Shown here one piece after another: positions 10,006-44,518 of a stretch of DNA of 64,000 nt. The position numbers were made by a program, and so were the translations under genes. Origin of the DNA: Octopus vulgaris (taxonomy: Eukaryota); NCBI GenBank assembly GCA_951406725.2, contig OX597827.1:41540001-41604000 (forward strand), given 5' to 3'. Each line of letters starts with the position of its first letter. Position 1 is the first letter of the stretch. The notes under the pieces are model-generated. The model was not told the origin of the DNA and did no database searches. It saw only the letters and a program-made list of their open reading frames with translations.

Positions 10006-10240
10006 ATATGTTGTTTATTGACTTTTTATACATGCTAGGCCACTGGTGGTGAAATTTCTAAGAATATTCGTTACCCTATATATATCTTACGAATATGATT
10101 CCAGCATTACGAAGATCAGCTCGGCATTATCCACTTACTACTGACTGAAACTGCGCTTGCGCGGTGAATTTTGAAAAATTATAACATATAATGATGAAAC
10201 ACGTGTTATTTGTCTAAATTATAAGTTAGTTGTTAAGGCA

Positions 10241-10311
10241 CGGTTACTGATGAGGATTCGCCTAACAAATTATCTTATTTGCTAAAGAAATCTGAAACCT
10301 AGGTATAACCG
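10241..10311 (+). ncRNA. Type I hammerhead ribozyme (PLE type, palindromic stem III)
   Basis: CGGTTA-CTGATGA-GGATT...AATCT-GAAAC-CTAG-GTA-TAACCG; perfect 6-bp stem I; predicted cut after 10305. Confidence 0.85.
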
Positions 10312-18811: not shown

Positions 18812-19100
18812 ATCACGTACTTTCCCGTCGTTAAACGGCGTATGAGGGTTCGGCAATTTCTTGCCGAACAATCACACAGATAATTTGCTTATAGCCAATA
18901 AATGTTTGTGTACACATAAGCTCAGTTCCTCCATCAAATCGACATCAAAACAAAAACAATTGCAGCGTGGAAGGTGTTTATAAGCCATTTAAAAATTCAC
19001 AATAACTGTTAGATTCACTTCAACATTTAAACTTAATTTGTCAAAATATTTTCGTCGCTTTGAAACCGCGAGCTGTTCACTGACAAAATTGCGTGCTGAA
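18812..19100 (-). mobile_element. PLE-like terminal fragment carrying a variant hammerhead
   Basis: 18860-18940 is homologous to 45890-45980; contains the 19038-19086 motif. Confidence 0.55.
19038..19086 (-). ncRNA. Minimal type I hammerhead with swapped G3:C8 core
   Basis: Minus strand TTGTCA-GTGAACA-G(C)TCGC-loop-GCGAC-GAAAATATTT-TGACAA; perfect 6-bp stem I; palindromic AATATT stem III. Confidence 0.7.
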
Positions 19101-19765
19101 TATACATGAGTGGAGTAAAAATAATAATAAAAAAATGTAGAAATTGAAAATGCCTGAGAACTAAAATGTTGCTATGTTTTATAACTAGAAAAATGCTAAA
19201 TTTTCGCTGAGATCAATCTAGGACATTTACTCCCTCAAGCCCCCTAAACTTCGAAAGTGGGGGATTTTTGTGAACTTTTAAAAATAGTGGAGTTTGTGGG
19301 GTTTGTGGGAGTAAAAGCCCTCGACTCATCTAAGCGAAAATTTAGCATTCTTCTAGTAATAATATATAGCAAGATTTTAGGCCCCAGGAATATTCAATTT
19401 CCACAATTCTTTATTTTCATTCCACCCTAGATTACACAATGTATATAACCGCACACACATACATGTGTGTTAGGGTGCAGTGAAAATAAAGAATTAAATA
19501 TGCCCGCGGCCTAAGATATTGCTATATATTATTAATAGAAAAATGCTAAAGTTTCGCTTTGCTCAGTCAAGGATATTTACTCCCTCAACCCTCCAAACTC
19601 CGCTATTGTAAAAGGTTTGCCCCCTCCCCTATTTTCGGAGTTTAGGGGGTTTGGGGGAGTAAATACCCTTGATTGATCTTATCGAAAATTTAGCATTTTC
19701 CTACCAATTAAATATAATAATATTTTGGTTCTCAAGCATTTTCAAGTTCTACAATTTTTTATTTT

Positions 19766-43517: not shown

Positions 43518-44518
<1,001 letters not shown>

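Follow-up and report, generated by a model that had tools for sequence, protein, structure and literature searches.

A hammerhead-shaped segment with a naturally swapped core pair, G3-C8 in place of C3-G8, is carried by the pseudo-LTR of a Penelope-like retroelement lineage of the octopus genome. Intact copies of this segment are likely to be slow self-cleavers assisted by dimerization or by a protein, and the copy found in the window (the whole 64,000-nucleotide stretch of DNA analysed here) is likely impaired; this reading is considered probable. The window copy is a slightly damaged member of a high-copy Penelope pseudo-LTR family with thousands of copies. It is a poor representative of this family because it lacks the pair G10.1-C11.1.

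C3-G8 has been regarded as almost invariant, and search patterns for hammerheads include it. It is a tertiary pair (PMC3884650). The double swap C3G/G8C partly rescues activity (PMC11167929, PMC8495972), the 2′-OH of residue 8 is reported to act at the scissile bond (PMC8495972), and cleavage by minimal Penelope hammerheads is weak and occurs in dimers (PMC4209133, PMC6765202). Papers cited by PMC number are represented here by excerpts, and statements drawn from them refer to these excerpts.

Structure of the motif in the window

The motif lies on the minus strand (19087-19037) and is found once in the 64-kb window (Table 1). All elements that an earlier note had listed at this place are found in the sequence, and their order is that of a minimal hammerhead as it had proposed: a three-way junction of type I with stem I, stem II and a minimal, palindromic stem III. 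Stem I is perfect, as described there, but has 7 bp and not 6; six of its pairs have probabilities of 0.87-1.0, the outer one 0.4. The stem II described as TCGC/GCGA is present in the window copy but is not that of the family, which has 5 bp closed by G10.1-C11.1 behind a bulged extra G. In the window copy it is limited to 4 bp because 10.1 (19072) is C where the family has G; C is then opposite C at 10.1/11.1, unless the extra G pairs and the C bulges. Because of this C, the hammerhead fold is weaker in the window copy (-8.3 kcal/mol) than in two intact copies (-12.4 and -13.3 kcal/mol).

Table 1. Features of the window copy and of the pseudo-LTR that carries it a
Feature	Position	Strand	Basis or remark
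Pseudo-LTR of a Penelope-like retroelement, solo, tail-less	18948..19101	-	About positions 3-157 of the 206-base unit
ATG opening the element ORF in full-length copies	18986..18988	-	In L230, reads into the RT protein
Stem I, 5′ strand (TTTGTCA)	19081..19087	-	Sequence
Swapped core GTGAACA (G3 U4 G5 A6 A7 C8 A9)	19074..19080	-	Sequence
Extra G between positions 9 and 10.1	19073	-	G in 62/63 family copies
Stem-loop II b	19054..19072	-	4 bp in window copy
GAAA (G12-A13-A14-A15.1) c	19053-19050	-	Sequence
Palindromic minimal stem III (AATATT) c	19050-19045	-	Sequence
UUU triplet d	19046-19044	-	
Stem I, 3′ strand (TGACAAA)	19037..19043	-	Sequence and pair probabilities
a Positions are those of the window. 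RT, reverse transcriptase. b The TCGC/GCGA stem is formed by 19071-19068 and 19058-19055. c The span from G12 to stem III is 19045..19053. d The annotated feature is 19043..19046. The predicted cut, placed by analogy with hammerhead numbering, would be between 19044 and 19043.

A motif descriptor, written post hoc, has one match in the window and none in 200 dinucleotide shuffles (both strands). The folding energy is unremarkable (z -0.44; 56 of 200 shuffles fold equally well). No Rfam match is obtained over the whole window at the gathering score; around the motif, at E up to 10, 12 weak matches are obtained, none of them to a hammerhead family. The earlier note had expected CUGANGA-based searches to pass over the motif; Rfam does, but the miss is not specific to the swap, since two canonical CTGATGA motifs of the window are missed too.

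A fold no more stable than that of shuffles and the absence of an Rfam match would suit a chance resemblance, or a swap arising as a by-product of coding constraint. This explanation is highly improbable: the descriptor has no match in the shuffles, and the motif sits where the sister family and relatives (see below) carry canonical hammerheads. It is largely refuted by this homologous position in related elements. Coding constraint is ruled out, the motif being upstream of the start codon and outside the long open reading frame (ORF).

A high-copy family with G3-C8

A first genome search with an 821-base query was swamped by an adjoining foldback repeat. In another search, query positions 12-165 (18948-19101 of the window) match dispersed copies with about 90-93% identity (2,901 candidates, 40 scored). 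The genome contains 6,175 exact matches to a 19-base core pattern that accepts C or G at positions 3 and 8; the control contains none. Among the first 100 of these matches listed, 97 are G3/C8, two G3/G8, one C3/C8 and none C3/G8. A sample independent of the core was also built from 80 of the first 100 listed (of 832) matches to a tail pattern, 63 alignments of which span the motif. G3/C8 is found in 55 of these 63 copies, scattered decay in 8 and C3/G8 in none. GTGAACA, proposed earlier as the family consensus, is therefore the majority state in both samples, and the literal combination of C3 and G8 (CUGANGA) is absent from both.

The other core positions (U4 G5 A6, A9, G12 A13 A14, A15.1-U16.1 and H17) are each kept in 58-63 of the 63 copies. 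Position 10.1 is G in 61/63 copies, and the closing pair 10.1-11.1 is G-C in 37/44 copies and G-T in 4/44. The five bases after GAAA and U17 are unaltered in 36/40 copies. The exact pattern of the window variant has 5 genomic matches versus 6,175 for the majority-type core pattern, the two patterns being of unequal length.

Covariation of positions 3 and 8 is not visible within the family. Independent variation of these positions among copies, which had been put forward as a possible refutation, tells little because most copies decay neutrally after insertion. Four sets of contigs presumed to be RNA cover the motif, and no variant reaches 10% in them at position 3 or 8.

Of 20 older copies that bear an ORF, nine contain the motif: four G3/C8, three G3/G8, one T3/C8 and one with a small deletion. 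If the three G3/G8 copies derive from a mobile master, the 3:8 pair is dispensable for transposition. These three copies (L380, L384 and L391) are all on contig C16 and belong to a set of copies with further C-to-G changes in common.

The host is a Penelope-like retroelement

Upstream-extended copies (510 exact matches) connect, through a 3′ UTR rich in microsatellites, with a GIY-YIG frame. One locus (L224) has an open frame of 1025 aa with RT motifs and a Pfam GIY-YIG match (E 1.8e-05, above cut-off); the motif is found about 1 kb past this frame, on the same strand. Another (L230) has a unit, a start codon, an RT-endonuclease ORF interrupted by frame breaks and, about 4.26 kb further along, a second unit. 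The single ORF thus encodes an RT plus, at the C-terminal end, a GIY-YIG domain, as in endonuclease-bearing Penelope-like elements; Pfam gave GIY-YIG alone, and the RT was recognised from its motifs and from homologues labelled as RT-domain proteins. The hammerhead has the sense orientation and belongs to the 5′ UTR, since it is upstream of the ATG of the ORF. In all three frames, stops are found between the motif and the unit end or before the ATG that opens the ORF.

The pseudo-LTR unit has 206 bases. Copies have their 3′ ends either at roughly 145-153 or at 206, in many cases followed by (TA)n; an inverted arm is found in 47/80 copies. Inverted arms and two 3′ end positions are a Penelope signature (PMC8557442, PMC11167929). 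Pseudo-LTR repeats, inverted 5′-truncated copies and a one-sided tail are all present in the family.

Other readings of the host were considered. A non-LTR retrozyme is ruled out: there is one copy in the window, and the family represents the terminal part of a coding element. A branch-point-like motif and YAG precede the unit; a shared upstream exon, expected for an intron, was not seen there, and the sequence is the element's own 3′ UTR. Two loci (L206 and L207) were rejected as tandem elements, having no RT protein match. The second of them holds the unit three times, as 153-base copies at intervals of about 2.6 kb; no RT match lies in the intervals, and the copies may stem from a local tandem duplication.

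Covariation of the 3:8 pair between families

The scan of relatives imposed no base at positions 3, 8 and 9. A sister family of the same genome, 61% identical in RT, has C3-G8 in 49/49 matches (30 loci); a protein of that family matches the genome at up to 100%. A Neptune-like family, which made up most of the yield of the first GIY-YIG search, has U3-A8 in 12/30 loci. For metagenome relatives, 46 of 79 loci were scanned (155,461 bases, many loci partial); four matches were found in these 46, all sense and downstream of the ORF, of which three are C-G and one U-A. Five shuffles gave three matches, at the lowest scores. A close relative with flanks (L264) has no hammerhead match.

The 3:8 pair covaries between families, since relatives carry C3-G8 or U3-A8. 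Across related families it is Watson-Crick as C-G, U-A or G-C, with exceptions among decayed copies, so the claim that the swap keeps this pairing holds. The UUU triplet had been called unusual, wrongly: U17 is common, being found in 48/49 motif matches of the sister family and in 3/4 metagenome relatives.

In an RT tree (16 rows; 4/20 loci left out because their matches were short, and one outgroup frame included; root uncertain), the swapped family groups with its C3-G8 sister, with support of 100/99, within a set of C3-G8 and U3-A8 relatives. G3-C8 is probably derived, since it is the odd state among the relatives and is paired with a C3-G8 sister.

Subfamilies were compared as well. A young subfamily has an altered loop II and keeps the core. 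An older one shares about 70% identity, over as many as 188 bases; its core is G3/C8 in 21/23 copies, C3/C8 in 2 and C3/G8 in none. It has a different base 7, a stem II of 6 bp and a palindrome of 4 bases (vs 6). Pair 6 of its stem I is G-C (G 14/23, C 8/12) versus T-A (T 39/44, A 36/40). The pattern used to search for this subfamily held most core bases constant, and it is only for positions 3 and 8, stem I and stem III that its copies are free of this bias. In the 1.5 kb around the 23 copies, no ORF was seen.

Some further features of the relatives were recorded. The sister family is young (L234-L263, e.g. L239 57-102) and has the C9 core CTGATGC in 49/49 matches and a bulged stem I. The Neptune-like family is also young (781 aa; pseudo-LTR L073-L094); its U3-A8 hammerhead has a stem I that is almost all A-U. 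In one metagenome locus (L266), U3-A8 is combined with C9.

Putative self-cleavage and reverse transcription

The 5′ starts of 124 arms were located: 87 are upstream of the cut site and three are at unit positions 58-64, around it. Inserted copies derive from uncut RNA, since the 5′ ends of arms show no accumulation at the cut site. The Poseidon element of Anolis (PAc) behaves alike, so the lack of ends at the cut site is compatible with slow cutting but is no evidence of it. The duplex formed by the palindrome is marginal (-0.2 kcal/mol).

These data bear on a rather unlikely alternative, a hammerhead descendant that no longer cuts and whose fold is kept for protein binding or for shaping the RNA for reverse transcription. 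It would account for inserted copies that read through the cut site, for the weak dimer helix and for G3/G8 in three older copies; for PAc, hammerhead mutants are reported without effect on insertion in vitro and no reads end at the cut site (PMC11167929). However, the other catalytic positions are all kept across subfamilies that are about 30% apart and in which free positions change. In addition, passing from C-G to G-C takes two changes that restore pairing, for which selection on the tertiary pair is the simplest explanation.

Slow, assisted self-cleavage of intact copies is the preferred reading, with the following putative course. Transcription would begin close to base 1 of the 206-base unit. 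The palindrome would join two pseudo-LTR RNAs to each other, or folding would be chaperoned by the element's own protein. As C3-G8 does, G3-C8 would hold in place the 2′-OH of residue 8, which acts at the scissile bond; the rate would be lower. Tandem or read-through transcripts of intact copies would be cleaved slowly, with assistance, and those of the window copy little or not at all. Reverse transcription would start about 150 or 206 bases into the unit, mostly on uncut RNA, and would thereby disperse pseudo-LTR copies, short and in many cases inverted, into AT-rich DNA. One such dispersed product would be the window copy, in which 10.1 changed later or in a sub-lineage. A stronger proposal is tentative, its chances being put slightly below even: G3-C8 would be a third working natural core pair, long fixed in an active Penelope lineage and tuned to be slow, so that most RNA survives for reverse transcription.

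Free 5′ ends pile up at the start of the unit, where 43 of the 124 arms begin at positions 1-8 (L032-L065, L096-L175). In 14 of 24 free 5′ ends, G is found where the template has a pyrimidine; this G may be a copied cap marking the start of transcription.

Comparison with known hammerheads

The excerpted description of metazoan Penelope-like minimal type I hammerheads (Cervera and de la Peña 2014, PMC4209133) gives the same layout, with the extra base between 9 and 10.1 and G10.1-C11.1. It likewise gives a palindromic minimal stem III, a location in the pseudo-LTR and mostly solo truncated copies. The pairs that it contains are C3-G8 and natural U3-A8 only, whereas the octopus family has G3-C8. 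Among natural core variants (Perreault et al. 2011, PMC3088659), the 3:8 pair covaries likewise in the excerpts, but as U3-A8 and not as G3-C8; five swapped-core words searched for in the supplements of that paper were not found.

PAc is alike in three respects: a pseudo-LTR hammerhead, two starts of reverse transcription that give the tail, and a template that is mainly uncut (PMC11167929). It differs in two. Its C3G/G8C swap is engineered and partly restores cutting, whereas the octopus swap is natural and fixed; and its ORF starts inside stem II, whereas the octopus motif is 5′ of the start codon (PMC11167929).

A natural G3-C8 hammerhead was not found in the literature searched, the coverage of which stops short of figures, of Lünse et al. 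2017 (Penelope-linked variants) and of Przybilski and Hammann 2007 (3:8 exchanges). Judged on sequence, what appears new is the natural G3-C8 core; engineered G3-C8 and natural U3-A8 are already known. The advance is modest, since the swap partly works in engineered RNAs, U3-A8 occurs naturally and cleavage is here putative.

A G3-C8 lineage of several thousand copies suggests that selection keeps the pairing rather than the identity of the bases, and surveys may undercount Penelope hammerheads. If the stronger proposal given above is true, swapped cores would make up a concealed part of genomic hammerheads, passed over by CUGANGA searches. The G3-C8 family, its C3-G8 sister and the U3-A8 neighbour would then form a natural series for the effect of the 3:8 pair on rate. 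The swapped family also offers a simple test of what hammerhead motifs do for Penelope elements.

The Nematis clade (PMC8557442, excerpts) has a similar arrangement of a C-terminal GIY-YIG and a short C..CxxC..C linker; the resemblance is one of the linker alone, judged by eye.

Other elements of the window

The two canonical CTGATGA motifs differ in form. The one at 10247 (+), in the region 10237-10310 (+), has a long stem II and a palindromic stem III. The one at 43860 (-), in the region 43820-43870 (-), is minimal and adjoins an (ATT)n tract; it is probably another Penelope end. A different repeat, a high-copy foldback whose inverted arms are nested, occupies 19110-19765, directly 5′ of the swapped motif on the minus strand (3,478 genomic candidates, 40 scored). 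It looks like a non-autonomous DNA transposon.
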